Below, one piece after another: positions 2,309 through 17,941 of a stretch of DNA of 19,513 nt. The DNA is from an uncultured Nitrososphaerota archaeon (GTDB lineage: Archaea > Korarchaeota > Korarchaeia > Korarchaeales > Korarchaeaceae). Below the pieces are notes generated by a model. That model was given only the letters and a program-made list of their open reading frames with translations, ran no database searches and had not been told where the DNA came from. Each line of letters begins with the position of its first letter. Positions within the stretch are counted from its first letter, which is position 1. The position numbers were made by a program, and so were the translations under genes. Location of the stretch: assembly GCA_964594835.1 (NCBI GenBank), contig CAZQNA010000017.1, positions 1 to 19,513 of the forward strand. Reading direction: 5' to 3'.

Positions 2309-2313
2309 AAAGT

Positions 2314-3126: not shown

Positions 3127-3129
3127 CGT

Positions 3130-3180
3130 TGAACTTCTCAAATTAGTTAAAGATAAATTTTGATTAAGCGCCTTACCGAC
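3130..3180. promoter_or_regulatory. AT-rich divergent promoter region
   Basis: CAAATTAGTTAAAGATAAATTTTGATTAAG between two head-to-head genes in otherwise GC-rich DNA. Confidence 0.6.
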
Positions 3181-3182
3181 AC

Positions 3183-3731
3183 GTGCCCGACTACCGGGTT
3201 CACGCCGCCTTGGGCTCGATCGCAGGTCTGTTAGCCGGTTTCGTGTTCTCTCTTGACTTATCTCTGGTACACGCCCTCATGGGCATCCTGGGGGGCCTCC
3301 TACCGGACATGGACGCGGAATCTTCCCTCGGTCACAGGCTCCTGCCCCTGCTGGGCGTGGCGGGGATCATCTGGGGTTCCCTTGACGGCTCTCACCTCGG
3401 TCTCTACATCATGGTTTGGGGCGCTATACTGGTGGCCGGGTACTTCGCACCGGCGCTAGGTCACAGGGGGCCGTGGCACGTCCTATCCCTGTTTCTGCCC
3501 ATCGTTCCCTACCTCGCGGCGGAATCGGCGGCGCCCTCCTACCTACTCGGCGAAGACCCCTGGGAGCTGGTCCTGCTGCTGATCGCGATGAACAGGACTG
3601 AGGAGGCCGCAATGCTTCTCCTGCTCTCGGACACCCTCACTCTGGGGACTCACGGACCGGATCCGCTCGGGCTGAGCGTGGCCGCGGTGGCCGGCGTGTT
3701 TTCCCACCTTCTGGCCGACATGGCCCACTAG
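3183..3731 (+). CDS. Membrane-bound metal-dependent hydrolase (YdjM/DUF457-like)
   Basis: Family motifs MPDYRVH, GGLLPDMD, GHRGPWH and SHLLAD, with several hydrophobic helices. Confidence 0.85.
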   Translation: MPDYRVHAALGSIAGLLAGFVFSLDLSLVHALMGILGGLLPDMDAESSLGHRLLPLLGVAGIIWGSLDGSHLGLYIMVWGAILVAGYFAPALGHRGPWHVLSLFLPIVPYLAAESAAPSYLLGEDPWELVLLLIAMNRTEEAAMLLLLSDTLTLGTHGPDPLGLSVAAVAGVFSHLLADMAH

Positions 3732-3741
3732 GTGAGCGACT

Positions 3742-5820
3742 GTGGCGCGCCTCAGGAGACTAAGGGCCCTCCAAATCTTTGCGCTCCTGGCGCTAATTGT
3801 ACCTACAGCCGCCTCCCTGGGCTTCGGGGGTGGGCAGCAGAACCCTGACGCGCTACCCCGAGTCGAGGTAGGAGAGATCTTCACCGCGCACAGGGTTCAC
3901 CTGCCCGACGCTAGGGTATCGGAGCGACACCGCGTCGACGTGCGGATTAGAGTGCCAAGCCTCCGAGGGCCGGGCCCCCACAACGTCACTATCGCGGTCT
4001 TCCCCCAGGCCGGGCCGCTCAACCTGAAGCTCCAGCTAGAGGACTATCACGCGGCGGACTGGGCGAACGTCACCGTGAGCGACGAAGGCTCCCGCGTGGT
4101 GGTCCACGCGTGGAACATCACTGAAGACATCTTTTGGATCCACCTAGAGATCCGCCTGAACGGATCGGTTCGATGGGATCCGATAGACTTCGGATGGGCA
4201 GACCCCCCTCCCAACGATGTGCTGCTATTCAGGGAGGTTCCAAAGTTTGAGTTCCTACTCAGGGCCAGCGATCGAGCCCCACAGTCGCAGATAAAGGTCA
4301 TAGTGAACTCCCTCGCCCTCCTCCCATCCAGTAGGTGGTGGCTGGACACCAACCTCAGCGTGGAGGCCGAGTGGCTCGAGCCAAAGGATGGAGAGTGCTG
4401 GTTCTTCGCCAACCTCTCCGAGATCGAGCCCGGGCAGTACCCAATATCCCTTCGGCTGCCGCGGGCCGGAACTGTTAGCCGCTTCAGGCCGAATGTCCAG
4501 GCCGAACTCACGATCCCCGACTGGAGACTCGAGGATCTCGGCTACTCCGCGTCGGTGGACGGCAGGCCCGTGAACATCACCCTCTCATCGACGACCATCT
4601 ACAAAGCCGGGTACAGACTCCTGGCCGAGCCCCTTCCTGGGAGGAGCTTCACGCTCATGGGATTTGAAGAAGTTCCCGTGGAGTTCGAGGCGCCCGGCTG
4701 GTTCTCCGCAAGGCTGGATCCCGAGGGCCTCGAGAGGATCTTGGCTATCGAGATCCCGGAAGGCGTCGAGATAACGGACCTCAGCGCCAGCGAGACGGAG
4801 GTCCATGGGCGGGAAGCCCTCCTGCTGACCGTCAAGCTCTCCGAGCCAGCGAACGTCACCCTGCTGCTCGGGGTACCCCGACTGGCCTACCCCCTGGAGT
4901 TCGGCAGGTTCTACAGGTCGCAGATCCCCCAGGTGATTGTGGAGGAATTCACCAGGCCGGAGAGGCTCATCGAATCCGACGACCCCTTCGTCCGGCTGTG
5001 GGCGGATCAGGTCTTGGGCGACGAGGAGGACGTGGTGAGGGCGGCCTACTTGGTGGCCTACAACCTGTCGAACACGCTGGTCTACGACTCCGAGAAGGCC
5101 AACGCGTCCGAGAGCGGCGTCTGGCGCGGGTACGAGGGGGCCAAGGAGGCCCTGATGAGGAGGAAGGGGGTCTGCAGAGACTTTGCCAGGGCCGCCGTGG
5201 CCCTGCTCAGGGCCAAGGGCCTTCCGGCTAGATACGTCACGGGCTACCTGATAACGGGCGAGGACGTGAAGGGCGCCCACGCGTGGTTTGAGTTCTACGT
5301 CCCGGGCCTGGGGTGGGTTCCCGCTGATGCCACGGCCCCGAAAGGGAAGTCGAGGTACGTTGAGCCCAAGATCGGCGTGCTGAGTGACCACCTGTACGTG
5401 ACCGCGCTCTGGGGAAGGAACCTGCGTCCGGCGGAGACCGCTGGGGCGAACAGGAGCAGGGCCAAAGAGGTCTTGGCGGAGATGATAGAGCTGACCGGGC
5501 GGAAGCTGACCGGAGATCGGCTGTACGGTTGGGTCAAGGGGGAGGAGAGGGCGCTGGCGCTCGGAGAGCTGGGTGAGGCTGAGTACCTGCTGGCGAATGG
5601 GGACTACCACGAGGCGCTCGTCACCGTGGCCTGGGTTCAGGAGAGGGCGAGAGGTTTCCGCCGGATGGTCGTCGAAGTGATTGTGGGGCTATCGCTATTA
5701 GTGCTGTCTGCTTTAGGGGTCAAGCAGGTTTTCAAACTTATCCAGGGCGAGAAGTCACGCAGGAGGCTTTCATATTCCGAGGCTATTTCGGAGAGCCAGC
5801 AGCACGCCTGCCAACATTAA
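3742..5820 (+). CDS. Secreted, membrane-anchored transglutaminase-like (Cys protease fold) protein
   Basis: Signal-peptide-like N-terminus. GVCRDFA...GLPARYVTGY...HAWFEFY...GWVPADAT gives a Cys-His-Asp triad. C-terminal transmembrane helix. Confidence 0.9.
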   Translation: MARLRRLRALQIFALLALIVPTAASLGFGGGQQNPDALPRVEVGEIFTAHRVHLPDARVSERHRVDVRIRVPSLRGPGPHNVTIAVFPQAGPLNLKLQLEDYHAADWANVTVSDEGSRVVVHAWNITEDIFWIHLEIRLNGSVRWDPIDFGWADPPPNDVLLFREVPKFEFLLRASDRAPQSQIKVIVNSLALLPSSRWWLDTNLSVEAEWLEPKDGECWFFANLSEIEPGQYPISLRLPRAGTVSRFRPNVQAELTIPDWRLEDLGYSASVDGRPVNITLSSTTIYKAGYRLLAEPLPGRSFTLMGFEEVPVEFEAPGWFSARLDPEGLERILAIEIPEGVEITDLSASETEVHGREALLLTVKLSEPANVTLLLGVPRLAYPLEFGRFYRSQIPQVIVEEFTRPERLIESDDPFVRLWADQVLGDEEDVVRAAYLVAYNLSNTLVYDSEKANASESGVWRGYEGAKEALMRRKGVCRDFARAAVALLRAKGLPARYVTGYLITGEDVKGAHAWFEFYVPGLGWVPADATAPKGKSRYVEPKIGVLSDHLYVTALWGRNLRPAETAGANRSRAKEVLAEMIELTGRKLTGDRLYGWVKGEERALALGELGEAEYLLANGDYHEALVTVAWVQERARGFRRMVVEVIVGLSLLVLSALGVKQVFKLIQGEKSRRRLSYSEAISESQQHACQH

Positions 5821-5976
5821 AGATCCGTTCCCCCATGCGTTGCAGGGCGGAGCTTTTCGTTCACTATGTTAGCGATCAAGTTCGCATGAGCTCAGTAAGG
5901 TTGACTGATAATCGAAATTCTTGGTCCTAAGATCTAAGAGTTACCCAAATAACTATTTTGCAGGCGTGATCACATA

Positions 5977-6921
5977 ATGCGATCTGCGGAGAGGCAAGGG
6001 GAGCTGGAACGGTGCGACGGTAAAGAGGATCCGATAGAACTCCTCCTAAAGCACAAGAGAGAGTTGGCGTCCGCTCTTTTAGTGATCTTCGTTACCCTAT
6101 CGTATTTTACCAGCTTGCCTCCATCAAGATCAACTATTTACGTTAATTACTATGACCAATCCAAAAGCTCCGATTTCAGATTCTTGTTAAATGAACTAAA
6201 CAAAAAATGGAGGAAAGATGTCTTGACCAGGGAGGATCTCAACATAAGTCCATGGAACTTGAAAATATACAGAACAAAACTAGACCTCTTCAAGTACGAA
6301 AGGGACATCCTCTTTTTCAGGGTGGCGATATCTCGGTCGGACGGAGGTACTCTTACATCCCCCGTCCCATCTCCATGGGGCACAAGCACGCTCGGTAAAT
6401 CATTTGTAGAGCGGAATCTGGCGCTTCTCCTGATGGTAGAAGACGAAAAAGGATTGGTACGGGGTAAGTACACCCTTGAGATTTCGCTCAGGGATAATAC
6501 AACTTCCATAGAACTACCCTTTGCTCTGAAAGTCCCTGATGATATGAGGGGCAAAGATGTGACTGTGCACGCTTGGCTCTATGTTACAGGCGGGGATGAT
6601 AAAATAAGCTATATAAATCATGAAATATACGGATTAATTCCATACGATTACAAGGAGTATTGTAAGGTTTACAGTTACAAATCATTTCAAACGTGGGGTG
6701 AACTGTTTTCGATAGTCTTGCTATCCCAAAGCATATGGGGCTTGGTAGCAGGAGCTGCAGGGTGGACTTTATCCTGGTTAATTGGTTTAATTGGCAGAAG
6801 ATATCCTAGAATTTCGGTTGAGCTAGCTAAATATAAATCAGTTCTACTAATCTCGGTTTTAGCACTATTCTTATCCTTAATCTCGACCTTGATCGTTTCA
6901 TACTTAGTCTCAATATCATAG
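5977..6921 (+). CDS. Hypothetical membrane protein, low GC
   Basis: 314-aa ORF with one N-terminal and about two C-terminal hydrophobic segments. Two sampled 60-nt lines are 32% and 37% GC. Confidence 0.7.
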   Translation: MRSAERQGELERCDGKEDPIELLLKHKRELASALLVIFVTLSYFTSLPPSRSTIYVNYYDQSKSSDFRFLLNELNKKWRKDVLTREDLNISPWNLKIYRTKLDLFKYERDILFFRVAISRSDGGTLTSPVPSPWGTSTLGKSFVERNLALLLMVEDEKGLVRGKYTLEISLRDNTTSIELPFALKVPDDMRGKDVTVHAWLYVTGGDDKISYINHEIYGLIPYDYKEYCKVYSYKSFQTWGELFSIVLLSQSIWGLVAGAAGWTLSWLIGLIGRRYPRISVELAKYKSVLLISVLALFLSLISTLIVSYLVSIS

Positions 6922-7000
6922 TAGCTGAAGTTCTCCAAATTAGAGTAATGGGCGCCCCCAACACCCCCTGTCCTCTAGGAACCTGCAGGGCCCTAAAGGC

Positions 7001-7014
7001 AAGGTTTAATTACC
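7001..7014 (+). promoter_or_regulatory. BRE/TATA-like promoter of the tRNA
   Basis: AAGGTTTAATTACC about 25-35 nt upstream of the tRNA 5' end. Confidence 0.6.
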
Positions 7015-7037
7015 GCATCGGGTTTCTACCTGCCTGC

Positions 7038-7167
7038 GGGCCGGTGGCGCAGACTGGTAGATCTAGTCTCTGGGGGCTTCTCGGCTAAAATCTCCCCCGG
7101 AGACGGAGCCAAACGCGCCCCCTTGGCATGGGGGAGGTCGCGGGTTCGAATCCCGCCCGGTCCACCA
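7038..7167 (+). tRNA. tRNA-Ala(GGC) with a 53-nt intron (7061-7113) at position 22/23; CCA encoded
   Basis: Acceptor stem GGGCCGG/CCGGTCC with a G3:U70 pair. D stem GCGC/G|CGC is restored by splicing. Anticodon arm CCCCC-TTGGCAT-GGGGG, T arm GCGGG-TTCGAAT-CCCGC, ACCA end. Confidence 0.95.
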
Positions 7168-7239
7168 TTTTCCCATAATTTTGGGTTCACAGAAAGCCTC
7201 TTTCATGAAAAGCAGCACCTTGGCCCTCCCGATGTAGGC

Positions 7240-8640
7240 TTAGTTAGCTGTCACCCTTACGAGGGAGCTCCTCACCAACTCTCCGCTTCCACCCACCTCC
7301 AGCAGGATGAGCGCCCCCTCCCTACATCCTCCGATCCTGATGTACTCCTTCAGCTGGGCTTTGTACCTCCCGAGCGACGCCGGGGCAAACCTGCGCATCG
7401 GCCTCAGCGTGGTCTTCACGTCGACTGGTCCCACCTCGCCGCCAACGAATCTGGCAAACAGGTCGGGCCTGTGGTTCTGCTCATACAGCCGCCTCCAGCG
7501 GCTGGTTTTTACCCACCTCTCGATCCGCGAGCTGATCTCTCTCAACACCTCAAACTTGCCGCTCAGCCCGAGTTCTTTGACAATAAGCTCTCCAGCCTTC
7601 CCTAGCCTTGGCGAGGCGGACGCCCTATTGGCCCTGACCTCCAGTATGATCTCTTGGGAGACGTAGATTCGCCCATCCAAGGTGACGTAGTAGTAGAACG
7701 GCAGGCCGGTCAGTCTGACGCCGTTCTCCTCCAGCACGCCCCGAACCGTCCTGTCCCTGAGTCTGACCTCGATCTGACCTCTTCGGGGTACGTGCCACCC
7801 CAGCAGGGGCTTGTATCTCGAGTCCCCGGGAACTCCGACGTAAGATCTCCCGTTTGAGAGGAGCCTTAGCGTCAGATCCCCTATGGGGATGTCCACTCTC
7901 ATGACGCCGGGCCCTGCAGTTCTGCCTGATGACCCGATTCTCACTCTCTCCAACGGAAGTCGCCAAGTTACGCCTCCGACAGGCCTGATTAGGATACATT
8001 CCTCATCGACCTCTGTCCAGGGAAATCCCCTACAAATCTCCGAGATCAGCTCTCGCTTGCTGAGTTTGGAGATCTTGAGTTCCGTCAGTCCGGGCTTGAG
8101 CCCCTCCAGCTTGAGCCCCTTGCCCACCACCCTGGCTAGCGCTCTCCTCCCCTGCACCCTCACCTTCACGTACTCCCCCTCGACGCCCCACGCCCTGAGC
8201 AGGGGCCTGCCCACGTACAGCCTGCCGTTGGGCCTCACCACGACCAGCTTCCTCGCCCCCAGCAGCGACTGAGCAGCCTCCCTCGGCTCGGCCCCAGCCC
8301 TGAGGAGCTCCTCGACGTAGCCCAGCAGCCTCTGCTCTCCGGCCAGGCACCTCCTCTCCCTGGGCGGGAACTTCAGGAGGGTCAGCCTGATGGCCCTGAG
8401 CAGGGGGCCCGCGTCTTCGCCAAGCCTGGAGGCCAGGGACTCCAGGGCCCTCAGGGCGTCTGCTCCAACGCCCTCCGTCGAGGCGAGGAGCCTCAGCTCC
8501 CTCCAGGCGCCGGGCCCCTCGGCGCCACGGCGATCGCGGTCCGCGCGAGGGGGTGCGAGGCCCCCGTCAGCTCCCTCGAAAAAATCCGGGATCAGGGGGC
8601 GGCAGGCTCCGCAGTAGGCCGTCTCCACCGCTCGCCTCAA
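7240..8640 (-). CDS. Hypothetical protein with repeated AbrB-like hairpins and a C-terminal PD-(D/E)XK nuclease domain
   Basis: C-terminal LGKAGELIV...RPDLFA...VDVKTT...AQLKEY. Internal NGRLYV, NGRSYV and DGRIYV motifs. Start codon uncertain. Confidence 0.7.
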   Translation of the reverse strand: MRRAVETAYCGACRPLIPDFFEGADGGLAPPRADRDRRGAEGPGAWRELRLLASTEGVGADALRALESLASRLGEDAGPLLRAIRLTLLKFPPRERRCLAGEQRLLGYVEELLRAGAEPREAAQSLLGARKLVVVRPNGRLYVGRPLLRAWGVEGEYVKVRVQGRRALARVVGKGLKLEGLKPGLTELKISKLSKRELISEICRGFPWTEVDEECILIRPVGGVTWRLPLERVRIGSSGRTAGPGVMRVDIPIGDLTLRLLSNGRSYVGVPGDSRYKPLLGWHVPRRGQIEVRLRDRTVRGVLEENGVRLTGLPFYYYVTLDGRIYVSQEIILEVRANRASASPRLGKAGELIVKELGLSGKFEVLREISSRIERWVKTSRWRRLYEQNHRPDLFARFVGGEVGPVDVKTTLRPMRRFAPASLGRYKAQLKEYIRIGGCREGALILLEVGGSGELVRSSLVRVTAN

Positions 8641-8999
8641 AATCAGCTGCCTCCCGGCCCGGGAGGAAGGCCCTTATCCCCCTGTGCCCTGGCTCTGCTG
8701 CCGGGTCGGAGACCTCAGCGTTGGGGAAACATTCGCCGTCCGCCCGCCGGATATGCCTCACGGTTCAGATGTGGTGGAGACCCCCGACTAGGCCGGGCTC
8801 TCGCCCTCACCTCGCCGAGCTTTGCCTCCTCGCTGGCCTCTGCCCTCTCCCCTTCCCTCTCTTCTTTCTTGCTCCCTCGCCCGCTCCGCTTCTTCGGCTC
8901 TCGACCCGTTTTCGTCTCGCTTCCGCGTTTTCCTTCCTTCTCCCATCTCCTCTCTGGGGTCGGGCCTTACCTCCCGGGGCCGACCCCCTAACCCGCCCT

Positions 9000-9066
9000 A
9001 GGCCATAATCCGAGCTGGGTGACGTGAGGGTGGCGCCATGGCGCCACCGCCCCTCCACTCCAGAAA
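9000..9066 (+). repeat. Left copy of an inverted repeat (22-bp perfect core at 9000-9021)
   Basis: AGGCCATAATCCGAGCTGGGTG is the exact reverse complement of 11839-11860. Further shared blocks are GAGGGTGGCG, GGCGCC(A/T)CCGCCC and CCAGAAA. Contains the perfect 20-bp palindrome GGTGGCGCCATGGCGCCACC (9029-9048). Confidence 0.9.
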
Positions 9067-9136
9067 ACTTTCACATAACGGGATTAAGTGGCTCTGAAAA
9101 CCGCGAAAAGTTTCCTTATCGCGCAATAATTTAATA
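9063..9136 (+). promoter_or_regulatory. Promoter with two GAAA-NN-TTTC palindromes and a TATA-like box
   Basis: GAAAACTTTC at 9063-9072, GAAAAGTTTC at 9105-9114, AATAATTTAATA at 9125-9136. Confidence 0.55.
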
Positions 9137-9167
9137 CTGGGAGCTCGAGGCGGACACGGTGGAGGAC

Positions 9168-9329
9168 ATGGCCAGGCTCTCTGACAACCCGGTCGTGTGG
9201 GCCCTTCTGGTCGGGGGCGCGCTGGCCGTCGTAGGCGTGGCTCTGAACTCCACCGCCCTCCTGGCCCTGGGGGCCGTCATTTCCCTCGGCGGAATCCTGA
9301 TGGGGGTGGTCTACGCGGCAAAGAGGTGA
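9168..9329 (+). CDS. Small 53-aa two-helix membrane protein (absent from the ORF track)
   Basis: MARLSDNPVVWALLVGGALAVVGVALNSTALLALGAVISLGGILMGVVYAAKR. GGAGG just before the ATG, with an alternative in-frame GTG at 9159. TATA-like box upstream, GC3-rich codons, stop 6 nt before the next gene. Confidence 0.8.
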   Translation: MARLSDNPVVWALLVGGALAVVGVALNSTALLALGAVISLGGILMGVVYAAKR

Positions 9330-9335
9330 GCCAGC

Positions 9336-9623
9336 GTGGCCAGGAGGAGGGTCGTGGACATAGGGAGGAGGCGGTACGTCCAGTACGTGGACAGGAGGGG
9401 CAGGATAAGGAGGAATGTACCGTGGAGCAAGTACCTCCAGGGGAAGGAGGGGGCCAGGGCGGCCAGGGTGAGGGAGGCCAAGAGGGGGCTGGCGAGGCTG
9501 GCGATGGGCAGGATCCCCCTGGTGGGAGACGCCCTGGACGCCTACGAGGCCGCCAGGCACCTGAGGACGATAGCCAGCGGGGGGAAGGCGAGCAGGTCAG
9601 GCCGGTCCAGGCGGCGGAGGTAG
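9336..9623 (+). CDS. Small, highly basic Arg-rich protein
   Basis: 95 aa, host-like AGG codons, GAGGTGA Shine-Dalgarno overlapping the upstream stop. Contains GRIPLVGDALDAYEA. Confidence 0.75.
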   Translation: MARRRVVDIGRRRYVQYVDRRGRIRRNVPWSKYLQGKEGARAARVREAKRGLARLAMGRIPLVGDALDAYEAARHLRTIASGGKASRSGRSRRRR

Positions 9624-9639
9624 TCGAACCCGAGTCAGG

Positions 9640-9933
9640 TCAGGGGCCGTCCCTCTCCCTCCTGAGCTCCATCAGCGCCAGGGCCACCCTCACGCCGTCC
9701 CTCGTGAGGGAGAGCACCCTCATGCTCTTCCCGTGGTCGGTCAGGAGCCCCCTGGAGACGAGCCTCTTCGCGACAGACTTGAACTTGGCCCTGATGCCGC
9801 ACCTCCGAGCTATCTCCTCCCACCTTATGGCCCTGGCGACCCTCTCCAATGACGAGTAGGATCCCCCTATGAAGCCCTCCCTCAGCATCCTGATCAGGAC
9901 CTCCTCCTCGTGGGGCTCAAGCCCGGATTCCAC
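9640..9933 (-). CDS. Small winged-helix protein
   Basis: KSVAKRLVSRGLL...VLSLTRDG recognition helix and wing pattern. GTG start at 9933 or 9948. Confidence 0.7.
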   Translation of the reverse strand: MESGLEPHEEEVLIRMLREGFIGGSYSSLERVARAIRWEEIARRCGIRAKFKSVAKRLVSRGLLTDHGKSMRVLSLTRDGVRVALALMELRRERDGP

Positions 9934-9993
9934 AATTGTACAACTCACTTACACAAGTATTTTAGCTCGTCGAGACCCCCTTCAGGTCCGGTG

Positions 9994-10548
9994 ATGGGGA
10001 TCAAGGCCGAGGCCCGAACCGCCGCAGGAGGGAGGAAGAGCTTGGCACAGGTGGCGCTGGAGCTCGCCGAGCTTGGATCCAAGGTGAAACCTGGAGAGAG
10101 GCTCACGCCTCACTCGATCAGGTCTCTGGGGATCGACGCCAGCTGGCAGACCATCCTCAAGGCGGCCAAGCTCATGGTCAGCCTTCAGGAGAGGCTCTGG
10201 GAGAGGGGCTTGGCCGTCGAGGTCCTGAGGGACGGGAGGGAGTGGAAAATAGTCTTCAGGAGGAGGTTTGAGGGCCTGTCTACTGAGGAGGTGGCCAGAA
10301 GGGTTAGGGAGCTCTACTTCCCGAAACCCGATGAGGTGGACGTCCTCCTGGTCCGGCTCTTTAACCTGGGGGCCGACTCGCCCGATGGAGCCGTGAGGCT
10401 CCTCCCGGGGCCGGCCTTGGAGAGGGCGCTGGAGCTGGGCCTGGTGGCCGAGTCGGCCGGCCGGTACCACCTGACGGAGCTGGGGGTGGCCGCCGCCAGG
10501 AGCACGCTCAGGATGTATCCGGAGCTGAAGGGCGGAGAGTGGGTCTAA
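9994..10548 (+). CDS. Putative DNA-binding protein with wHTH-like domains
   Basis: LTPHSIRSLGIDASWQTILKA and ALELGLVAESAGRYHLTELG. Start at GTG 9991 or ATG 9994 avoids overlap with the divergent gene. Confidence 0.7.
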   Translation: MGIKAEARTAAGGRKSLAQVALELAELGSKVKPGERLTPHSIRSLGIDASWQTILKAAKLMVSLQERLWERGLAVEVLRDGREWKIVFRRRFEGLSTEEVARRVRELYFPKPDEVDVLLVRLFNLGADSPDGAVRLLPGPALERALELGLVAESAGRYHLTELGVAAARSTLRMYPELKGGEWV

Positions 10549-10590
10549 GGTAGCGAGGCTCACCGCAGGTCTTGTGTTTAGGTGCTGCTG

Positions 10591-10819
10591 ATGGGGGGCC
10601 AGGAGAGTTCGACGTAGTGATCGTAGAGGACGGAGGCAGGGCTATAGTGCTATTGTCCCGCTCCGTCCGGCTGTTACACCTAGAGCGAGACGATCGAGGA
10701 GTTGATGATCAACATCAGAGAGGCCGTTGAGTTCTACTCTGAATCCTGACCAGGGAGGAGCTTGAGCAGGTGAAGATCCAAGATGTCCGGAGGTCGTCGC
10801 CACCGAACTCGAGCTCTAA
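10591..10819 (+). pseudogene. hicB: Degraded HicB-family antitoxin
   Basis: EFDVVIVED (from 10605), GYSAIVP (from 10640) and GCYT*SETIEELMINIREAVEFY (from 10669) lie in three different frames, with TAG at 10681. Confidence 0.8.
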
Positions 10820-10825
10820 CTTGGC

Positions 10826-11761
10826 TCAGTAGACGGCCCTGCCCTTCCTCTTCAGCTCCTCCAGCCTCCTCGCCACGTGGGCTTTCTCTCCTTTACTCAG
10901 CCTCAGGAACGCCAGGGTCGCCAGCCTGCTCCCTGCCCTCGTGTCCACCCTGCCGCGCCTCGACTCGACCCACCCGAGCTCCTCGAGCTCGGAGATGGCC
11001 CTGATCGCGTGCCTCCTCCCTATGTTGGCCCTCCTGGCTATCTCGCTCTTGCTCAGGCCGTCCTCGGCCAGCAGGACCTCCAGCACCCTCCTGGCGGACA
11101 TGTCCAGCCTCGCGAGGTCGCGGTCTAGCCCGGCGGCCCTCTCGGGGATCAGGTTGATCCCTGGCGGGGGCGAGGTGACGGCGGCGGATCCCGCCCCCGC
11201 TTTGGCTGGGGTCAGGCTCGAGCTCGCTCCCGCTCCCGCTCTGGATACAGATCCAGCTCCGGCTCCGGCTCCCACGTCCGCGCCCGCGTCCAGGTAGCCC
11301 GCGACCTCCTCGCCCCCCAGGGGCAGGTTCAGGACGACCCTCAGCCTGTCCCAGGCCAGCCCGAGGGACGAGCGGACCAGCCTGGCGAGTCCCCTGACGG
11401 CCCACCCGAGCCTGCCCAGCTCCGCCAGGACGTACGCTAGGGCCCCGAGGAGCACCAGCGCGAGCGTGCTAGCTGCGATGGGCCCGCCCACGGCCACGAC
11501 GCCCCAAGCGGAGGCGAGCCCCCAGAACCCGAGGGTGACCCAGGCGAAGATCCTGGCGGCCCACCTCCTGGACCCGCCCAGCAGGAGGAAGAGCGAGGGC
11601 GTGAGGGCCAGGAGGAGCCAGACGAAGGAGACGTCCCCGAGGTCGGGGTGGATCAGGTAGATCGGCACCCGGAGCAGCAGGGAGATCAGGAGCGCCAGGG
11701 CGGGCGCCAGGATCAGCCTGGCCAGCAGCCTCAACCCGACTCGGCCCGCCCTCGGGGGCAC
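10826..11761 (-). CDS. Membrane protein with Gly/Ala linker and C-terminal MarR-like winged HTH
   Basis: About four hydrophobic segments, a GAGAGAG linker, then RRVLEVLLAEDGLSKSEIARRANIGRRHAIRAISELEELGWVE. Confidence 0.8.
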   Translation of the reverse strand: MPPRAGRVGLRLLARLILAPALALLISLLLRVPIYLIHPDLGDVSFVWLLLALTPSLFLLLGGSRRWAARIFAWVTLGFWGLASAWGVVAVGGPIAASTLALVLLGALAYVLAELGRLGWAVRGLARLVRSSLGLAWDRLRVVLNLPLGGEEVAGYLDAGADVGAGAGAGSVSRAGAGASSSLTPAKAGAGSAAVTSPPPGINLIPERAAGLDRDLARLDMSARRVLEVLLAEDGLSKSEIARRANIGRRHAIRAISELEELGWVESRRGRVDTRAGSRLATLAFLRLSKGEKAHVARRLEELKRKGRAVY

Positions 11762-11773
11762 AGCTTCTAACCG

Positions 11774-11860
11774 TTTCTGGCGCCGCGGGCGGCCGGGCGG
11801 AGGCGCCTCCCAGCCGCCACCCTCGCGCCCCCGGGCGCCACCCAGCTCGGATTATGGCCT
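11774..11860 (-). repeat. Right copy of the inverted repeat (22-bp perfect core at 11839-11860)
   Basis: CACCCAGCTCGGATTATGGCCT, with extended gapped similarity to 9000-9066. Confidence 0.9.
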
Positions 11861-11879
11861 GCTGGGGCTCGGAGGCGCG

Positions 11880-13904
11880 ATGCCCCGCTCAGCGCGGGGG
11901 GCGGCTCACGGCGTCGGCCCGGGCCCGGTCAGGATCAGGGTCCTGGGGCTCAGGTTCGAGTCCCGGGGCCGGCGCTTCAGGGCGCCGCCTCCGTTCGGGG
12001 GAGTCTTCTCCGTCCTGAGGGTCGCGAGGATTGATCCGGGGGAGCCTCAGAGGCCCGGGGCGCTGATCGCCGGCCTGGCGTCGGCCGGGGGAGGGGCGCT
12101 CACGTACCTGATCAGGCCCCTCGCCCACGGCGCGTTCGCCTCCGCCAGGGCCGCGGGCGAGGAGGGGCTCGCGAGGGCCGAGAGGGCGCTCGAGGCGGCG
12201 CTGAGGGTGGGCCTGGGGTTCGTCGATGTGGAGCCGGCTCCGGCCGACCCCTTCCACCTGGCCGTCCCCCTGGCCGGGGCCCTGCCGGACGGGTCGTGGG
12301 CCAGCCGGAGGTGCCTGCGCGTGCCAGGTGGGGGCGGGGTGAGGTGCCTGGCGGCGCTGGAGTTCCGCCTACCCGTCGACGAGGGGTCCCGTCGGGGAGG
12401 TGACGGGAAGGGGGAGGAGGGGCGCGCGCCGGACGTCGGCGCCCTGATCAGGGCCCTGGCCGGGGCCGGGGTGGAGGCGGCGCTGACGCTGTCGGTCTCC
12501 TCCCCCCGCGCCCTCCCCATGCCGAGGTCCCGCGCGCCCGACGGCCCGAGGGGCCACCTGGCCCTGTTCCTGCTCACCCCGGTGTCTGCGACGCTTAGAG
12601 AGGCCAAGAGGGAGGCTGACGCCCTGGCCTCGCTCGCCGAGGCCGCGGCAGAGTCGGCCCTCGGCTGGAGGGCTCGAAGGGTTGCGTGGCCCCGCCTGCG
12701 CCGGCTGGCGAGGGCCCTGCTAGAGAGGCGCGTCCCCTCCGGCGACCTGGGTCCTGGGGACCTCTCGGCGGTCGCCGGCGTCCCCGCGCTCCGGGGCCTG
12801 GGAGGGCTGACCTCGTGGTCCCCCGCGCCCACGTTAGACCCGCCGCCGGCGGTGGAGGGCGTGGAGCTGGGCGTGGCGCTCGGGCCCGGCTGGTCCCTCC
12901 CCCTGAGGCTGGCGCCGGAGTGGCTCCCCCTCCACGTGGCCGTCTTCGGGTCCCCCGGGTGCGGCAAGACGACTCTGGTCAGGGGCTTCCTGCGGAGGTA
13001 CTCCTCAGAGTACGGCGGGCCGGCGCTGGTGCTGGACAGGCACGGCGAGTACTCGGGCCTCCCCGGGTTCAGGGTTGTGAGGGTGGGCCTGGACCCCGTC
13101 GCCCTGGACCCCCTCGACCCCAGGGGGCTGGAGCCGGGCGAGGCGGCGAAGGCCCTCTGCGCCGTGTTCGGGGTGGTCTGGCCCGAGGAGTTCGGTCCCC
13201 TGATGGCCCACCTCCTCAGGGAGGCCTACGTGAGGGTCCTGGAGGGGCCGGGGCGCCCCTCGCTGGCGGACCTGGCGGGGGAGGTGTGGTCGATGGCCGA
13301 GTCCGGCGCCGGGCCCCTGAGGTCCAGGAGGGCGAGGGACGCCGCCTTCTCCCTCGCGTCGAGGCTGGGCGAGCTGGGGACGGGTCTCGTGGCCAGGGCC
13401 CTCGGCGTCGACTCGGGGCCGGGCGAGAGGCTTGCCGACCTCCTGGCGTCCGGGCGCCCCATAGTCCTCGACCTCTCCCGCCTCATGTCCGACGGGGACA
13501 GGACTCTGGTGAGCCTCCTCGCCCTGGCGGAGCTTGAGGGGCTGAGGAGGCGCCGGCCCGCCGGCAGGCCGCACGTCGCGGTGGTGGAGGAGGCGCACGC
13601 GGTTTCCCCTCCCGGGGTCTCGGGCGGGCTCGTCCCGAGGCTCCTGAGGGAGGCCAGGAAGTTCGGGGTCTCGGTGTGGCTCGTCGATCAGAGGCCGTCA
13701 AACGTGGCGCAGGACGCGGTGGGGCTCTGTGGGACCGTGGTGGTGGGGAGGCTCCTCCACCCCGTCGACCTGGAGGCGCTGGGGCTCACGCGCGGGGAGG
13801 GTCGGCCGGGGGGAGTTGACCCCTCCCTCCTGGGCGCGGGGGAGTGGCTGGTCAGGGTCCCGGGCTCTGGGTACTCGCTGATGAGGTCGCAGACGCCTCG
13901 GTGA
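11880..13904 (+). CDS. HerA/VirB4/FtsK-superfamily P-loop ATPase
   Basis: HVAVFGSPGCGKT (Walker A), LVLDRHGEY, IVLDLS, VAVVEEAH (Walker B), REARKFG and DQRPS. The ~330-aa N-terminal region was not recognised. Confidence 0.9.
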   Translation: MPRSARGAAHGVGPGPVRIRVLGLRFESRGRRFRAPPPFGGVFSVLRVARIDPGEPQRPGALIAGLASAGGGALTYLIRPLAHGAFASARAAGEEGLARAERALEAALRVGLGFVDVEPAPADPFHLAVPLAGALPDGSWASRRCLRVPGGGGVRCLAALEFRLPVDEGSRRGGDGKGEEGRAPDVGALIRALAGAGVEAALTLSVSSPRALPMPRSRAPDGPRGHLALFLLTPVSATLREAKREADALASLAEAAAESALGWRARRVAWPRLRRLARALLERRVPSGDLGPGDLSAVAGVPALRGLGGLTSWSPAPTLDPPPAVEGVELGVALGPGWSLPLRLAPEWLPLHVAVFGSPGCGKTTLVRGFLRRYSSEYGGPALVLDRHGEYSGLPGFRVVRVGLDPVALDPLDPRGLEPGEAAKALCAVFGVVWPEEFGPLMAHLLREAYVRVLEGPGRPSLADLAGEVWSMAESGAGPLRSRRARDAAFSLASRLGELGTGLVARALGVDSGPGERLADLLASGRPIVLDLSRLMSDGDRTLVSLLALAELEGLRRRRPAGRPHVAVVEEAHAVSPPGVSGGLVPRLLREARKFGVSVWLVDQRPSNVAQDAVGLCGTVVVGRLLHPVDLEALGLTRGEGRPGGVDPSLLGAGEWLVRVPGSGYSLMRSQTPR

Positions 13905-14016
13905 TCCGGGTCGAGCCGAGCCCTCATGTGCGAGAGGGGCGTGATCTCGGGCTCCGGGGCTGACGTACAGCGGGCCCCACCTTTTATACTCCCCCGGGTA
14001 CGCTGCTCGTCCGGAG

Positions 14017-14331
14017 ATGCCGGTGGTCAAGACTCCGGGGGTCCTCGGCGGCTCCGCCAGAATCGAGGGCACGAGGATCGCGGTCTGGATGATCGTCTCG
14101 CTGATCAGATCAGGTTGGACCGTTGAGCAGATCCTCGAGGAGTATCCAGGGCTCACCAGGGAGCAGGTGGAAGAGGCCCTGGCCTACTACGAGGAGCACA
14201 GGGACGAGGTGGACGGGGAGATCGAGAGGGCTGATGAGCTATGGGAGATAGGTAAGAGACACTCTGAGGCGGATCTCAGGGCTAGAGAGGCCGAGGAGGC
14301 CCTCAGGAGGGCGCTGAGGGAGGCGGGGTGA
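14017..14331 (+). CDS. DUF433-family antitoxin (VapB45-like)
   Basis: PGVLGGSARIEGTRIAVWMI...GWTVEQILEEYPGLTREQVEEALAYY. TTTTATA box about 30 nt upstream. Confidence 0.9.
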   Translation: MPVVKTPGVLGGSARIEGTRIAVWMIVSLIRSGWTVEQILEEYPGLTREQVEEALAYYEEHRDEVDGEIERADELWEIGKRHSEADLRAREAEEALRRALREAG

Positions 14332-14341
14332 TCGTCTCCTC

Positions 14342-14698
14342 TTGGGCGCGCCGGGGCTTCGGATTCTCGCCGACGAGAACGTTCCATTAAAGGTGATCAA
14401 AGCCCTGGAGAGCTTAGGCGTGAAGGTACTGACGGTGGGCGACTTGGGCATCCGGGGCACCGGCGACGAGGAGGTCCTGGGGACCGCCGCCGGCCTTCGG
14501 GTTCCCCTCCTGTCCCTGGATGTCAAGGATTTCTCTAGGCTTCACGTCAGCTGGCTGAACGGTCGCATGGCTCACTTCGGAATAATTCTTGTGAGCACCA
14601 AGTCCCTGAGGACTTTGGGACCAGGCGGTGTTGCGGCCAGGGTCGTTGAGGTCCTCGGGTGGTATCGCGGGCAGACCGGCTGGGTACACTACGTGTAA
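14342..14698 (+). CDS. DUF5615 PIN-like toxin (VapC45-like)
   Basis: RILADENVP...GTGDEEVL...LLSLDVKDF...HFGII, directly after the DUF433 gene. Confidence 0.9.
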   Translation: MGAPGLRILADENVPLKVIKALESLGVKVLTVGDLGIRGTGDEEVLGTAAGLRVPLLSLDVKDFSRLHVSWLNGRMAHFGIILVSTKSLRTLGPGGVAARVVEVLGWYRGQTGWVHYV

Positions 14699-14771
14699 GC
14701 AGCGGCCGTCTGGCCCACTCAATAAACCCCCCTCGGGCGAGCCGTCAGATCGACGGAGCCCTTCGCGAGCC

Positions 14772-15392
14772 TCAGCTAGCGTCGAGTTCAACCCCCATCC
14801 TTCGAAGAGCCTCCGCAACCCTGCGCGCGCCTCGAACCCGTCTCTCCCTCATGATTTTCAGGTACTCCCCGAGCCTCCCCTCGTCTATCATCCGAAGCAG
14901 GCCGGGGGCGATCTCGTCCGCGAGGGGATACCTCAGGTAGATCGCGTCTATCAGCGTCTTCTCGGGCGTTGAGACCCTGATCCACTCGTCAACCTCACTC
15001 AGGCGGACCAGGTCGTATCCGAAGTACATCTTCGGGGAGATCCTCCTCAGGAGGACCTTGTATCCGCAGACGATCCTCTCTCCCCACCTCACCGCCGCCG
15101 ACACCAGGGGCGAGAGCACGGTCAGGGCCGTCACCTGCGTCCAAGCCCCGTGGATCAGGGCCGCCGAGCCCAGGCCGACGTACGACATCGGCAGGGCCTT
15201 CAACACCATGTACGGCGACCTCTTGAAGGTGTACACGCCCCTGGCGAGTTCGACGATCTCCCCCCTCCGCCTCAGCCTGTGTATGAAGACCTTCGCGTAG
15301 GCCCTCCCCACCGCCCCCTCGACCAGCCTGAACGTGAAGACGCTGGAGGACCTCAGCCTGTCCAGGAGCTGATGGTGCCTACGCCTCGGCGT
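14772..15392 (-). CDS. abiEi: Type IV TA AbiEi-like antitoxin
   Basis: N-terminal wHTH (VFTF...RLRRRGEIVELARGVY), SYVGLGSAALIHG and VSTPEKTLIDAIY. The frame extends upstream of GTG 15311 to an ACG at 15392. Confidence 0.8.
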   Translation of the reverse strand, partial: TPRRRHHQLLDRLRSSSVFTFRLVEGAVGRAYAKVFIHRLRRRGEIVELARGVYTFKRSPYMVLKALPMSYVGLGSAALIHGAWTQVTALTVLSPLVSAAVRWGERIVCGYKVLLRRISPKMYFGYDLVRLSEVDEWIRVSTPEKTLIDAIYLRYPLADEIAPGLLRMIDEGRLGEYLKIMRERRVRGARRVAEALRRMGVELDAS

Positions 15393-16032
15393 GGCGCCTC
15401 ACCTTCCTCACCACGGACTCGAAGCTCGGGGGGCGGCCGAGGAGGATCAGCTCCCTGAGCCCCTCGAAGTCGGGGGGAGGAGTCTCCAGCTCCGGCAGGA
15501 GGGATCTAAGCTCGGCACCGATCCCACAGTCCTCGCAGAGGTCCAGGAGGTAGTACACGTCGTACAGGTCTCTGGCCTTCCTCCTGTCCCGGAAGGCTCT
15601 GATCTTCTCCCTGAGGAGGTCACAGGCCGTGAGCACCCTCACGACCAGGCTGCCGCCGTCGGTCATCCAGTAGTCAGCCTCCGTGGTCTCGATCTCCCTG
15701 AACGGAGGGGAGGCCTCCAGCTCCACCTCGGCCCCGGACTCGTCCGCTACCCTCAGGTAGAGCACCCGCGACGGGGTGAGCTTGCTCCTCACCACCCTGA
15801 TCCCGGGCAGCGACCTGAACGCCTCCTCTATCCCCTCGGGCTCCCAGCAGTAGACGTCGACATCTATGGAGAACCTCTTCCCGCCGTAGACCCTCCACAC
15901 GGCCGCTCCCCCGTGGAGCACGAAGTCGAACCTCTTGGCCAGCTCCACCACCAGGAGGTCCTGGAGTTCGGCGATCCTGAGCAGCCTGCCCTTGAGGATT
16001 CGGGCCAGCGGGATCTTGGAGTGCGCTCCCAC
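15379..16032 (-). CDS. abiEii: Type IV TA AbiEii-like nucleotidyltransferase toxin
   Basis: FVLHGGAAVWRVYGGKRFSIDVD and EKIRAFRDRRKARDLYDVY. GTG 16032 preferred because a TATATATAA box lies about 20-28 nt upstream (16052-16060). Confidence 0.9.
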   Translation of the reverse strand: MGAHSKIPLARILKGRLLRIAELQDLLVVELAKRFDFVLHGGAAVWRVYGGKRFSIDVDVYCWEPEGIEEAFRSLPGIRVVRSKLTPSRVLYLRVADESGAEVELEASPPFREIETTEADYWMTDGGSLVVRVLTACDLLREKIRAFRDRRKARDLYDVYYLLDLCEDCGIGAELRSLLPELETPPPDFEGLRELILLGRPPSFESVVRKVRRHAEA

Positions 16033-16142
16033 ACAGTATCGTGGACCTGGGTTATATATATTGATAACCATGGTCTTTAGAATTGTCGAAGGCGCGGAGA
16101 GAAGGGTAATATATCGGACCCGAGCATTTTTCGCGATCTCAC

Positions 16143-17150
16143 ATGGGCGCGGCGATAGAGGCGGATGGGCTGACCAAGAGGTTCGGCGACTTTACTGCCG
16201 TCGACCACGTCTCCTTCACGGTCGAGGAGGGCGAGATCTTCGGATTCTTGGGCCCAAACGGCGCCGGCAAGACCACCACCATCAACATGCTGATCACGCT
16301 GATGAGGCCCACCGAGGGCACCGCCAGGGTCGCCGAGCACGACGTCGTGGCGGAGCCGGACAGGGTCAGGGAGAGGATAAGCGTCGTCTTCCAGGACCCC
16401 ACGCTGGACAGGAGGCTGACCGGCTGGGAGAACCTGTGGATACACGGGAGGCTCTACGGCATCCCCAGGGACGAGCTGGCGGAGAGGATAGAGCGGGCGG
16501 CGAGGTTCACGGAGATCGAGAGGTGGCTCCACGTCACGGTGGACAGGTACAGCGGGGGCATGATGCGAAGGCTCGAGATAGCTAGGGCCCTGCTCTACGA
16601 GGCGGATGTGATCTTCCTGGATGAGCCCACCGTCGGCCTGGATCCGCAGACCAGGGCCAGGATCTGGGAGTACATCAGGGCCCTCAGGAGGGAGGGGCTG
16701 ACCATATTCCTCACCACGCACTACATGGACGAGGCGGAGAGGCTGTGCGACCGCGTGGCCATCATAGACCACGGGAAGATCGTGGCCATGGGCACCGTCG
16801 ATGAGCTCAAGTCCATCGTCGGCGGAGAGGTGGTGTACGTCGCGGTCGACCCTCCCGGGGAGGCGGAGAGGCTGGCCGAGGCCATTCAGCGAGAGGGGCT
16901 GGGTTCCGAGGTGAGGGCCCTGAACGGCACCGTCTCCATATCCACCGAGAACGCCGCGCAGGCCATCCCGGCGGTGGTCTCGCTCGCCTCCTTCCTGGGC
17001 GTCGGGGTCAGGGAGGTGAGGTACAGGACCCCCGACCTGGAGGACGTGTTCCTCCTCGTCACGGGCAGGAGCCTGAGGGACGAGGAGGCCAGCTTCTTCG
17101 ACCACGTGCGCATGAGGCGGATGGCCAGGATGAGGAGGGCCGGGAGGTGA
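16143..17150 (+). CDS. ABC exporter ATP-binding subunit (DrrA-like)
   Basis: GPNGAGKTT, YSGGM, IFLDEPTVGLDP and TTHYM motifs. Confidence 0.95.
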   Translation: MGAAIEADGLTKRFGDFTAVDHVSFTVEEGEIFGFLGPNGAGKTTTINMLITLMRPTEGTARVAEHDVVAEPDRVRERISVVFQDPTLDRRLTGWENLWIHGRLYGIPRDELAERIERAARFTEIERWLHVTVDRYSGGMMRRLEIARALLYEADVIFLDEPTVGLDPQTRARIWEYIRALRREGLTIFLTTHYMDEAERLCDRVAIIDHGKIVAMGTVDELKSIVGGEVVYVAVDPPGEAERLAEAIQREGLGSEVRALNGTVSISTENAAQAIPAVVSLASFLGVGVREVRYRTPDLEDVFLLVTGRSLRDEEASFFDHVRMRRMARMRRAGR

Positions 17151-17155
17151 CGTGA

Positions 17156-17941
17156 ATGGCGACCGCAGAGGCGTACTTCAGGACGATCTCCACCATGTGG
17201 TACAGGCAGATCAGGAGGTTCCTGAGGGCCAAGTCCCGCGTGGTGGGCACCGCGGTCCAGCCGGTGATGTGGCTGGTGTTCTTCGGCATGGGGCTCGGAG
17301 GGGCCATGAGGCTCGCCGCCGCCAGGCCGGGCTCGGCCTCGCTGGACTACCTGTCCTTCATGGCGCCCGGCGTGATCATGATGAGCGTCTTCATGACCTC
17401 CTTCATGTCCGGGATATCGGTGATCTGGGACAGGGAGTTCGGCTTCCTAAAGGAAGTGCTGGTGGCCCCGGTCCCCAGGTCCGCCTCGATCCTGGGCAGG
17501 GCCCTCGGAGACACCACGACGGCCGTGATACAGGGGCTCATAATCCTGGTCATGACCTCCCTGCTCGCCCCGCAGGTGAGCCTCTCTGGCATACCGCTGG
17601 CCGTGGCGTTCATGCTGATGGTCTCCCTGACCTTCACCTCCATGGGCATAGTGCTGGGCTCGAGGATGAGGAGCATGGAGGGCTTCCAGCTCATCAACAC
17701 GTTCCTGTCGATGCCCCTCCTCTTCCTGAGCGGGGCCTTCTACCCGCTGAGGACGATGCCCGACTGGATGCGCTACCTCGCCTACGTGGATCCCCTGACC
17801 TACGGCGTCGACGGGTGCAGGGCAGCGCTGATAGGGATGGGGGAGCTGGGCCTCTGGACCGACCTGGCCCTGCTGGCGGTGCTATCCCTCGCGTTCACGG
17901 CCGTCTCGATAGTGGTGTTCAGGAGGACTACCATAGACTGA
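17156..17941 (+). CDS. ABC-2 type permease (DrrB-like)
   Basis: DYLSFMAPG, WDREFGFLKEVLVAP, FLSGAFYP and DPLTYGVD, about six TM helices. Confidence 0.95.
   Translation: MATAEAYFRTISTMWYRQIRRFLRAKSRVVGTAVQPVMWLVFFGMGLGGAMRLAAARPGSASLDYLSFMAPGVIMMSVFMTSFMSGISVIWDREFGFLKEVLVAPVPRSASILGRALGDTTTAVIQGLIILVMTSLLAPQVSLSGIPLAVAFMLMVSLTFTSMGIVLGSRMRSMEGFQLINTFLSMPLLFLSGAFYPLRTMPDWMRYLAYVDPLTYGVDGCRAALIGMGELGLWTDLALLAVLSLAFTAVSIVVFRRTTID

Follow-up and report, generated by a model that had tools for sequence, protein, structure and literature searches.

FtsK/SpoIIIE and Streptomyces TraB combine an N-terminal multi-transmembrane (TM) anchor, a low-complexity linker, a motor and a winged-helix DNA-recognition domain. 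For the Korarchaeota, we know of no genetic system and of almost no mobilome. Other ATPases with related motors come with different partners: Ced and Ted systems are defined by a 6-7-TM VirB6/CedA/TedA-like channel encoded with the ATPase (PMC9905601), and MAD7-MAD8 is described as an ATPase-nuclease module (PMC13662399). Table 1 of Makarova et al. (2014, PMC4158269) lists HerA-like helicases and also regulators with a winged helix-turn-helix (wHTH) as some of the most frequent families in archaeal 'dark matter islands', and for the HerA-like helicases of these islands it gives the label of a possible viral DNA-pumping ATPase. Here we compare these systems with a probably korarchaeal stretch of 19,513 bp (the window), and within it with the interval 7240-13904, which lies beside a tRNA-Ala(GGC) gene, encodes a HerA/VirB4-fold ATPase, and was described in an initial annotation as a candidate undescribed membrane translocation module. 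We show its anatomy, linkage pattern, ATPase fold, purifying selection and promoter-motif conservation, and we read the interval not as a single machine but as one half, the right one, of a hypervariable accessory island that surrounds the tRNA. Sequence comparison indicates that it holds two conserved two-gene units, one encoding 102- and 212-aa proteins and the other a membrane-anchored wHTH protein and the ATPase, the rest being strain-specific.

Linkage of the genes across genomes

The window is the whole of contig C17 from a 24-contig, 1.82-Mb genome (97% complete; G000). We compared it with up to 43 genomes of the phylum, whose genome set comprises 43 species (41 genomes for some protein counts), including four congeners (G001-G004, giving five genus genomes with the source) and two genomes of a sister genus with 40-42% GC (G005 and G009), and with metagenome loci L032 and L033; a metagenome scan with a three-sequence ATPase alignment returned six loci, two of them useful. 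The source genome averages 64.9% GC (s.d. 0.037 across 3555 2-kb windows), and a 2026 survey reports that the GC content of korarchaeal metagenome-assembled genomes runs from 37 to 66% and that a single marine clade stands at 65.5% (PMC12787533). The stretch was present in 21 sequencing runs, most of them labelled hydrothermal vent metagenomes and none listed as RNA. We take the source to be a probable high-GC korarchaeon of hydrothermal habitats. All open reading frames (ORFs) named in the initial annotation were present in the window, and 25 window ORFs were scanned against family libraries.

The genes of the interval occur in different sets of genomes. Near-orthologs of the ATPase were found in three of 41 genomes (the source, G003 at 70% identity, and a fragment in G002) and at L032 and L033; 35 further genomes matched the query only through paralogs of at most ~32% identity, three had no match, and the N-terminal 340 aa used alone as query matched two of 43 genomes. 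The membrane wHTH protein is full-length in G000 and G003, and its gene again adjoins that of the ATPase, in divergent orientation, on metagenome contig L033. The 102- and 212-aa genes are adjacent and divergent in G004 and G009 and lie ~0.9 kb apart in G005, three genomes that lack the ATPase near-ortholog and hold only HerA-superfamily paralogs of at most ~32% identity; these genomes also gave no full-length match to the membrane wHTH protein, with a weak match to its wHTH alone in G005 (E 5.8e-4). The 56-aa hydrophobic protein occurs in one of 43 genomes, the source itself, and did not appear on the short contigs that bear the ATPase gene in G003 and L033. Only the source has the 95-aa gene in full length, its three other matches covering 26-28 residues (in G004, in G003 and, weakly, in G027). 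A one-module reading fails because the genes do not travel together, and the linkage counts largely refute the proposal of a single translocation module: checked for co-occurrence, its components fall into different genome sets, and homologs of the whole set are scattered.

That all seven genes form one minimal translocation system (Ced/Ted-like, for toxin delivery, or for virus extrusion) is therefore, in our judgement, very improbable. It would account for the side-by-side position of an ATPase of a suitable superfamily, a small protein with two membrane helices, a membrane wHTH and a basic protein and for the same promoter motif facing both outer genes, and in runs X5 and X9 contigs cover 9240-13848 with this gene order, showing that the inner genes travel together among close strains, which also counts against our own mosaic interpretation. 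Set against this, G004 keeps the left promoter, its leader and the 102/212-aa pair between other genes, G003 and L033 keep the ATPase pair beside HicAB, and the left copy of the promoter faces a non-coding stretch instead of the nuclease-like gene directly.

A variable island of mosaic build occupies the segment from 7.2 to 16.1 kb, bordered by the tRNA and by a conserved backbone with an ABC transporter. The backbone (16100-17941) shows 80-93% DNA identity in G001, G002 and G004, and is matched in G003 from 17343 only, at a contig end; the AbiEi/AbiEii region has 74-91% DNA matches in G001, G002 and G004. G004 retains the tRNA, 8635-9037, 9539-10545 and the backbone from 14920, with 9037-9539 unmatched where its flanking matches abut and with other genes replacing 7173-8634 and 10546-14015; between tRNA and backbone it carries a 421-aa gene, two HepT genes (one with an MNT-type nucleotidyltransferase), AbiE and other ORFs. 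In G002, the 3' end of the ATPase gene is joined straight to the ABC backbone at 16107, and the DUF433/DUF5615 pair is missing. Contigs of runs X3 and X5, from different studies, join 13900 to 14764, linking the end of the ATPase gene to that of the AbiEi gene, and so skip the same pair, with sides of 36 and 73 letters; these joints match at 88% likeness and call for caution, and several joints with short sides (21-23 letters) were set aside as probable repeats or other organisms. The DUF433/DUF5615 pair is a presence/absence polymorphism between strains. C-terminal remnants of the 95-aa gene, one of them with an in-frame TAG, lie at G003:C3:47886-47963 and G004:C9:302958-303041 and are traces of past cassette turnover.

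In this reading, the island is built from small cassettes, each gained, lost and reshuffled on its own: the leader with the nuclease-like gene, the two strain-specific small proteins, the 102/184-aa pair, the membrane wHTH/ATPase pair and two toxin-antitoxin (TA) pairs. TA modules flank the ATPase pair in each context seen (DUF433/DUF5615 and AbiE here; HicAB and DUF433 in L033, on the other side of the pair). As a whole, this is an ordinary archaeal variable island rich in TA pairs and orphan genes, and the proposed module does not merit an entry as a new system of secretion or transfer.

The ATPase pair and the 102-aa gene are maintained and not decaying, with ratios of nonsynonymous to synonymous substitution (dN/dS) between orthologs of 0.2-0.47. 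The ATPase has 0.25 (0.27 in its N-terminal region, 0.20 in the motor), the membrane wHTH protein 0.36-0.47 and the 102-aa gene, compared with G004, 0.31. Purifying selection of this kind speaks against the earlier suggestion that the locus has decayed. The 212-aa copy in G004 carries an in-frame TAG.

We considered whether the interval is the relic of a virus or plasmid integrated at the tRNA, with a former packaging or conjugation ATPase and leftover small proteins and with the integrase and attachment (att) sites lost, and regard this as unlikely. Such an origin would fit the tRNA-adjacent position, the orphan small genes, the matches of the ATPase in PHROGs to a phage family of unknown function (E 2.7e-13) and a family of terminase large subunits (E 3.4e-9), and the label given to island HerA-like helicases in Table 1 of PMC4158269. 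It would also fit base composition, since 11.0-13.5 kb holds the three highest-GC 2-kb windows of the genome (0.7525-0.7585 versus a mean of 0.649, among 3555). However, GC content at third codon positions (GC3) in the ATPase gene equals that of the backbone ABC gene (0.93 in both), the surplus coming from codon positions 1 and 2 of an Ala/Gly/Arg/Pro-rich protein. The GC excess argues against recent import because it is confined to those positions and reflects amino-acid make-up. No integrase, replicase, capsid or NurA family was found among the window ORFs scanned, in agreement with the initial annotation for integrase, replicase and NurA; no second copy of the tRNA 3' part, as an att direct repeat would require, was found in the contig. 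Circular forms, which had been proposed as a check, did not appear either, there being no circular joint in four runs (whose contigs show presence, not absence). The ATPase had no relatives in IMG/VR or genome contigs (pattern scan) or in INPHARED phages or PLSDB plasmids (tblastn), and congeners differ cassette by cassette instead of by a whole element. The locus does resemble the dark matter islands outlined by Makarova et al. (2014, PMC4158269), being narrow, fast-evolving and tRNA-adjacent with a HerA-like ATPase, wHTH, small membrane and orphan genes, but differs from those described there with the HerA-like helicase arCOG00280 in having no integrase or att repeats.

The ATPase and its membrane-anchored partner

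The Walker A (GSPGCGKT) and Walker B (VAVVEEAH) motifs of the ATPase are kept in its orthologs, and DUF87 matches at 41.1 bits against a cut-off of 23.2. The confident model of its motor (residues 324-674) matches structures in the Protein Data Bank (PDB) with Z scores of 25-31 over 318-342 residues: DndH-C (Z 30.6, rmsd 3.4, 321 residues), the VirB4 C-domain (29.7), defence HerA (28.4), Sulfolobus HerA (28.2), Thermococcus kodakarensis HerA-NurA (26.1) and TrwB (25.9). The predicted fold thus places the ATPase in the HerA/VirB4 part of the FtsK-HerA superfamily, as initially annotated, at a near tie that permits no finer assignment. The region before the motor is predicted to be alpha/beta at a pLDDT of 54-73; it had no phmmer match in the PDB, whose fold searches list essentially the motor domain, and in the Atlas it falls near unnamed clusters at 0.89-0.91, with a lead to DUF8128 from a cluster at 0.86, in which 26% of members carry it. 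The top Foldseek matches in the viral library were VirB4-like phage proteins of ~800 aa, aligned over ~820 columns at a TMq of 0.41-0.42, a weak hint that the N-terminal region may be arranged as in VirB4. Word-based searches of a 5.8-billion-cluster collection returned the ATPase and two near-identical proteins only, and homologs at 89-95% identity are labelled 'Thermoproteota archaeon' and 'Candidatus Korarchaeota archaeon'.

The ATPase is a third, accessory HerA-superfamily paralog with a lineage-specific N-terminal region of 330 aa. It is not the housekeeping HerA, because the same genome has its own canonical NurA-HerA-Mre11-Rad50 cluster, with the HAS-barrel, on contig C4. A second DUF87 gene, on C12, belongs to a clade that adjoins a TFIIB-like gene in eight of ten other paralog loci scanned. 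In a 16-row tree, which leaves out the fragments P0003, L033 and G002 and includes no CedB, TedB or VirB4 references, the ATPase and two orthologs form a clade of their own on a stem of 1.68 substitutions per site, apart from both paralog clades. The phylogeny called for in the initial annotation accordingly separates the ATPase from housekeeping HerA. The HerA-NurA end-resection helicase shares the RecA-like motor fold and the above-cut-off DUF87 match, but its models score far below threshold (NF040819, 46 bits versus 970; NF040937, 33.8 versus 800), the ATPase has no HAS-barrel match, and no NurA, Mre11 or Rad50 is adjacent.

As a side observation on the paralogs, the usual cluster at loci L038-L040, L042-L045, L047, L049 and L051, considered with C12, consists of a TFIIB-like (cyclin-fold) gene, a DUF87 ATPase and a convergent AAA_18 adenylate-kinase-like gene, which looks like a conserved housekeeping-type cluster of the phylum. 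The 205-aa neighbour of the C12 gene itself had no family match.

The partner of the ATPase is a 311-aa protein with hydrophobic segments within residues 7-119 and a Pfam HTH_24 match at residues 224-266 (24.6 bits against a cut-off of 21.9), findings that uphold its earlier description as a membrane-tethered wHTH; 12 further related HTH families match below cut-off, among them FtsK_gamma (E 0.0077). Orthologs in G003 and L033 are 67-68% identical, and the linker is not conserved. Sequence comparison indicates that the membrane wHTH and ATPase genes constitute a conserved divergent pair. At L033, a predicted 132-aa membrane protein (L033:1693-2091, minus strand) is encoded between the two; it has no family and no counterpart in the window and is unrelated to the 56-aa protein.

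We interpret this pair as a conflict module, for defence against viruses or plasmids or of an addiction type, the likeliest of the readings considered, though at somewhat less than even odds. The ATPase would form a hexamer that translocates on double-stranded DNA (dsDNA) and acts as effector or sensor motor, and the divergently encoded membrane wHTH protein may bind GGCGCC and CCACCC operator elements and control the ATPase. Likenesses to defence HerA proteins (Sir2-HerA, DUF4297-HerA) and to MAD7-MAD8 of MADS include the best PADLOC match of the ATPase (mad8, E 1.6e-18, with several HerA models also matching), fold scores of Z 22-28 and TA- or defence-type surroundings. The differences are that the NCBIfam antiphage-HerA models NF042943 and NF042944 reach 43.3 bits versus 800 and 23.4 versus 850, that the partner here is a membrane wHTH, and that no Sir2, DUF4297 or other effector is a neighbour in four contexts. 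Several points weigh against a conflict module, in addition to the tiling among close strains given above. No profile ties this ATPase family to defence, and the mad8 and HerA-defence matches cover the generic P-loop motor only; no nuclease or other effector is fixed beside the pair; the VirB4-like phage proteins at the top of the viral-library search fit a two-domain ATPase of conjugation or transfer type at least as well; a partner with four TM segments, a linker and a wHTH would be unusual as a simple repressor and is reminiscent of FtsK outside its motor; and the linkage observations on the pair all stem from a single genus and do not count as independent.

Several of these observations bear on a different explanation, that the two proteins are a split FtsK/SpoIIIE/TraB-like membrane DNA pump, in which one protein supplies anchor, linker and wHTH, the other supplies the motor, and dsDNA is moved across or at the membrane to exchange DNA or take it up. 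Between them, the two proteins contain the same set of parts as FtsK/SpoIIIE and TraB, from the ~4 TM segments, variable low-complexity linker and C-terminal wHTH of the partner, with FtsK_gamma among its sub-threshold matches, to a motor whose fold ties with VirB4 (Z 29.7) and TrwB (Z 25.9) and whose full-length matches in the viral library are two-domain VirB4-like proteins. The extra membrane protein between the genes at L033 and a linkage that is conserved and under purifying selection would also fit. Nonetheless, we think a split pump unlikely. Here the parts are divided between two chains, and the wHTH belongs to the anchor chain instead of the motor; FtsK_gamma is one of 13 equivalent HTH matches; and the motor is nearer to HerA, VirB4 and DndH (Z 28-31) than to FtsK (Z ~17-18.5). 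Divergent genes around a shared operator region are the classic layout of a regulator and its target, and the distribution is confined to one genus, within TA-rich variable DNA. Nor is there a VirB6/CedA-like channel of 6-7 TM segments or a conserved pilin, the 56-aa hairpin protein being restricted to one of 43 genomes. The same holds for a comparison with Ced/Ted and VirB4 type IV secretion systems: a VirB4/HerA-type ATPase, a two-helix small membrane protein nearby and VirB4-like full-length viral matches are alike, but 7240-13904 has no 6-7-TM VirB6/CedA/TedA-like ORF, its only multi-TM protein having ~4 TM segments and a wHTH, the NCBIfam CedD model reaches 41.3 bits where its cut-off is 600, and no other genome shows the 56-aa protein linked with the ATPase. 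A still more specific version, a two-component dsDNA pump whose motor has a new N-terminal docking domain, serving korarchaeal DNA transfer or the expulsion or import of foreign DNA and coupled by the shared promoter to the leader-nuclease cassette, appears to us distinctly unlikely.

What is new at the locus is an ATPase lineage of HerA/VirB4 fold that is very narrowly distributed, has a 330-aa N-terminal region unique to it and keeps a fixed DNA-binding partner anchored in the membrane. Should the pair prove to serve defence or to be a split DNA pump, the FtsK-HerA superfamily would gain a new architecture.

A duplicated putative promoter/operator and a conserved leader

The initial annotation saw the genes as arranged symmetrically around an inverted repeat. 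The repeat is real: 9000-9024 and 11836-11860 are 25 nt long and 96% complementary, and its 22-nt core occurs exactly twice in the 1.82-Mb genome, against no occurrence of a reversed-pattern control. At the right copy, the AT-rich hexamer ATTATG begins 29 nt upstream of the ATPase ATG, with its centre ~26 nt upstream. An archaeal TATA box stands ahead of leaderless mRNAs at about the same spacing, and the hexamer would be the TATA box of a leaderless ATPase transcript. Five aligned upstream regions, those of the ATPase in G000, G003 and L033 and the left arm in G000 and G004, share the motif GCC(A/G)C(C/T)C...ACCCAGCTC(G/T)(G/A)ATT(A/T)TG(G/A)C. Across the five genus genomes the 19-nt core has four sites, two upstream of the ATPase (G000, G003) and two heading the leader (G000, G004), and the control has none. 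GGCGCC-centred palindromes lie just upstream of both copies, as a 20-nt perfect palindrome on the left and, read by eye, as GGAGGCGCCTCC at 11801-11812 on the right. From these sequence features, the inverted repeat is one promoter/operator duplicated in opposite directions and not the ends of an element.

The left copy heads a stretch of ~340-400 nt that is conserved between G000 and G004 at 83% mean column identity, with indels of 1, 2, 3 and 5 columns; the G004 copy of this promoter-leader unit lies at L021:14030-14412. ORFs within the leader give no GC3 coding signal: the GC3 of ORFs inside 8553-9058 is 0.58-0.65, versus 0.79-0.94 for the named ORFs. The leader terminates in a CCTCCCGG-C-CCGGGAGG hairpin and TTTT that abut the starts of two unrelated downstream ORFs, the 466-aa gene in G000 and a 421-aa gene with a sub-threshold LAGLIDADG-like match in G004. 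Rfam at E<=10 gave chance-level matches only, and the folding z score was -1.38, with 10 of 100 shuffles folding as well. Because this conserved non-coding stretch intervenes, the left copy does not drive the nuclease-like gene directly. The symmetry originally described is therefore that of a promoter/operator duplication in which the left copy faces a non-coding stretch.

In the proposed arrangement, one promoter/operator would be used twice, the right copy firing into the ATPase gene and the left copy into the conserved leader ahead of the nuclease-like gene, with a leader or small RNA as product. The promoter-leader unit might act as an attenuator or regulatory leader, or as a small RNA that marks a slot for cassettes. 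That one promoter/operator with its untranslated leader stands ahead of unrelated nuclease-like genes in two species hints at an effector-swap slot under one control element.

Island borders and remaining genes

Table 1. Position, strand and character of the features in and around the island (window coordinates).
Feature	Coordinates	Strand	Remarks
tRNA-Ala(GGC) with insert (intron) of ~50 nt in the D-arm region	7038..7167	+	Left border of the variable stretch studied
466-aa orphan protein, possible PD-(D/E)XK nuclease	7240..8640	-	Helical N-terminus, AbrB-like beta repeats (by eye), C-terminal GE...PD...(D/E)VK
Conserved non-coding stretch (leader or small RNA)	8636..8999	-	Purine-rich tract; 3' hairpin 8650-8666, then TTTT 8639-8642
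Left promoter/operator copy (putative)	9000..9051	-	Core ACCCAGCTCGGATTATGGC at 9002-9020; 20-nt perfect palindrome 9029-9048
56-aa hydrophobic two-helix protein (53 aa from ATG 9168)	9159..9329	+	Hydrophobic over residues 4-52; GC3 0.86
95-aa very basic protein	9336..9623	+	pI 12.0; 29 R+K; GC3 0.93
102-aa protein, half of divergent pair	9640..9948	-	4 of 41 genomes: G000, G004, G009, G005
212-aa ORF, probable start 9994 (184 aa)	9910..10548	+	Partner of the 102-aa protein; 5 of 41 genomes
311-aa membrane-anchored wHTH protein	10826..11761	-	~4 TM (by eye), variable low-complexity linker, wHTH 224-280
Right promoter/operator copy (putative)	11799..11860	+	TATA-like ATTATG 11851-11856
674-aa HerA/VirB4-fold ATPase	11880..13904	+	N-region alpha/beta ~41-280; motor 324-674
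DUF433 / DUF5615 (PIN-like) TA-type pair	14017..14698	+	Pfam 84.4 and 47.3 bits, above cut-off
AbiEi / AbiEii type IV TA pair	14772..16071	-	Pfam AbiEi_4 25.5 and AbiEii 57.2 bits, above cut-off
ABC-transporter ATPase, right island border	16143..17150	+	Pfam ABC_tran 113.4 bits; backbone common to congeners

The 466-aa protein had been called a PD-(D/E)XK nuclease. Its GE...PD...(D/E)VK pattern is shared with two of four weak relatives, the only ones among 1.84 billion representatives, in which the columns of E351, P392 and DVK align (P0006 and P0008). No profile backs the assignment: the protein matched no family in Pfam, NCBIfam, PHROGs or PADLOC, nothing in a PDB sequence search and no relatives in IMG/VR; its gene had no DNA match in the four congeners, and among up to 43 genomes of the phylum it was found in the source only. 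An AlphaFold2 model made with no alignment supplied reached a pLDDT of 40, unusable for fold search. In the Atlas, the best cluster (0.86) is unnamed, and a PDDEXK_3 cluster stands at rank 19 with a score of 0.81. GC3 of the gene is 0.79.

Among the small proteins, the two-helix membrane protein and the very basic protein of the initial annotation are confirmed by hydrophobicity and isoelectric point (Table 1). The term 'wHTH regulators' for the 102- and 212-aa proteins finds no support in libraries or PDB sequence searches: neither has a family at cut-off (DUF7059 reaches 18.2 bits versus 27), the PDB sequence searches were empty, and the 184-aa protein has no relatives in IMG/VR. In the alignment of the 212-aa ORF, homologs begin near residue 36. 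Around the homologs of this pair in G009 and G005, TA-like genes were recognized by eye from N-terminal sequences.

Rfam RF00005 scores the tRNA at 7097-7160 (plus strand) with 31.7 bits against a gathering score of 29, and ARAGORN called no tRNA at 7038-7167. Its extent, an anticodon loop TTGGCAT (GGC = Ala) and an encoded CCA were read by eye, as was the G3:U70 identity pair of the acceptor; the insert follows the D-loop, a non-canonical position. G004 DNA matches 6997-7061 and 7129-7172, with the insert unmatched, and in the orthologous region of that genome ARAGORN calls a tRNA-Lys. Annotation of tRNAs in these genomes may be unreliable.

To the left of the tRNA, 1972-6996 had no DNA match in the four congeners. 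It encodes an HFX_2341-like/DUF6293 wHTH protein, a YdjM-like membrane protein and a 692-aa transglutaminase-like membrane protein. Directly 5' of the tRNA, 5977-6921 (plus strand) encodes a predicted 314-aa membrane protein with no family match and no match in congeners; at 43% GC (GC3 0.46) in a 65% GC genome, its gene looks like a recent foreign insert. Because 1972-6996 is unmatched in congeners and this 43% GC gene lies 5' of the tRNA, the DNA appears flexible on both sides of the tRNA, and the flexible region by this comparison extends beyond 7240-13904.

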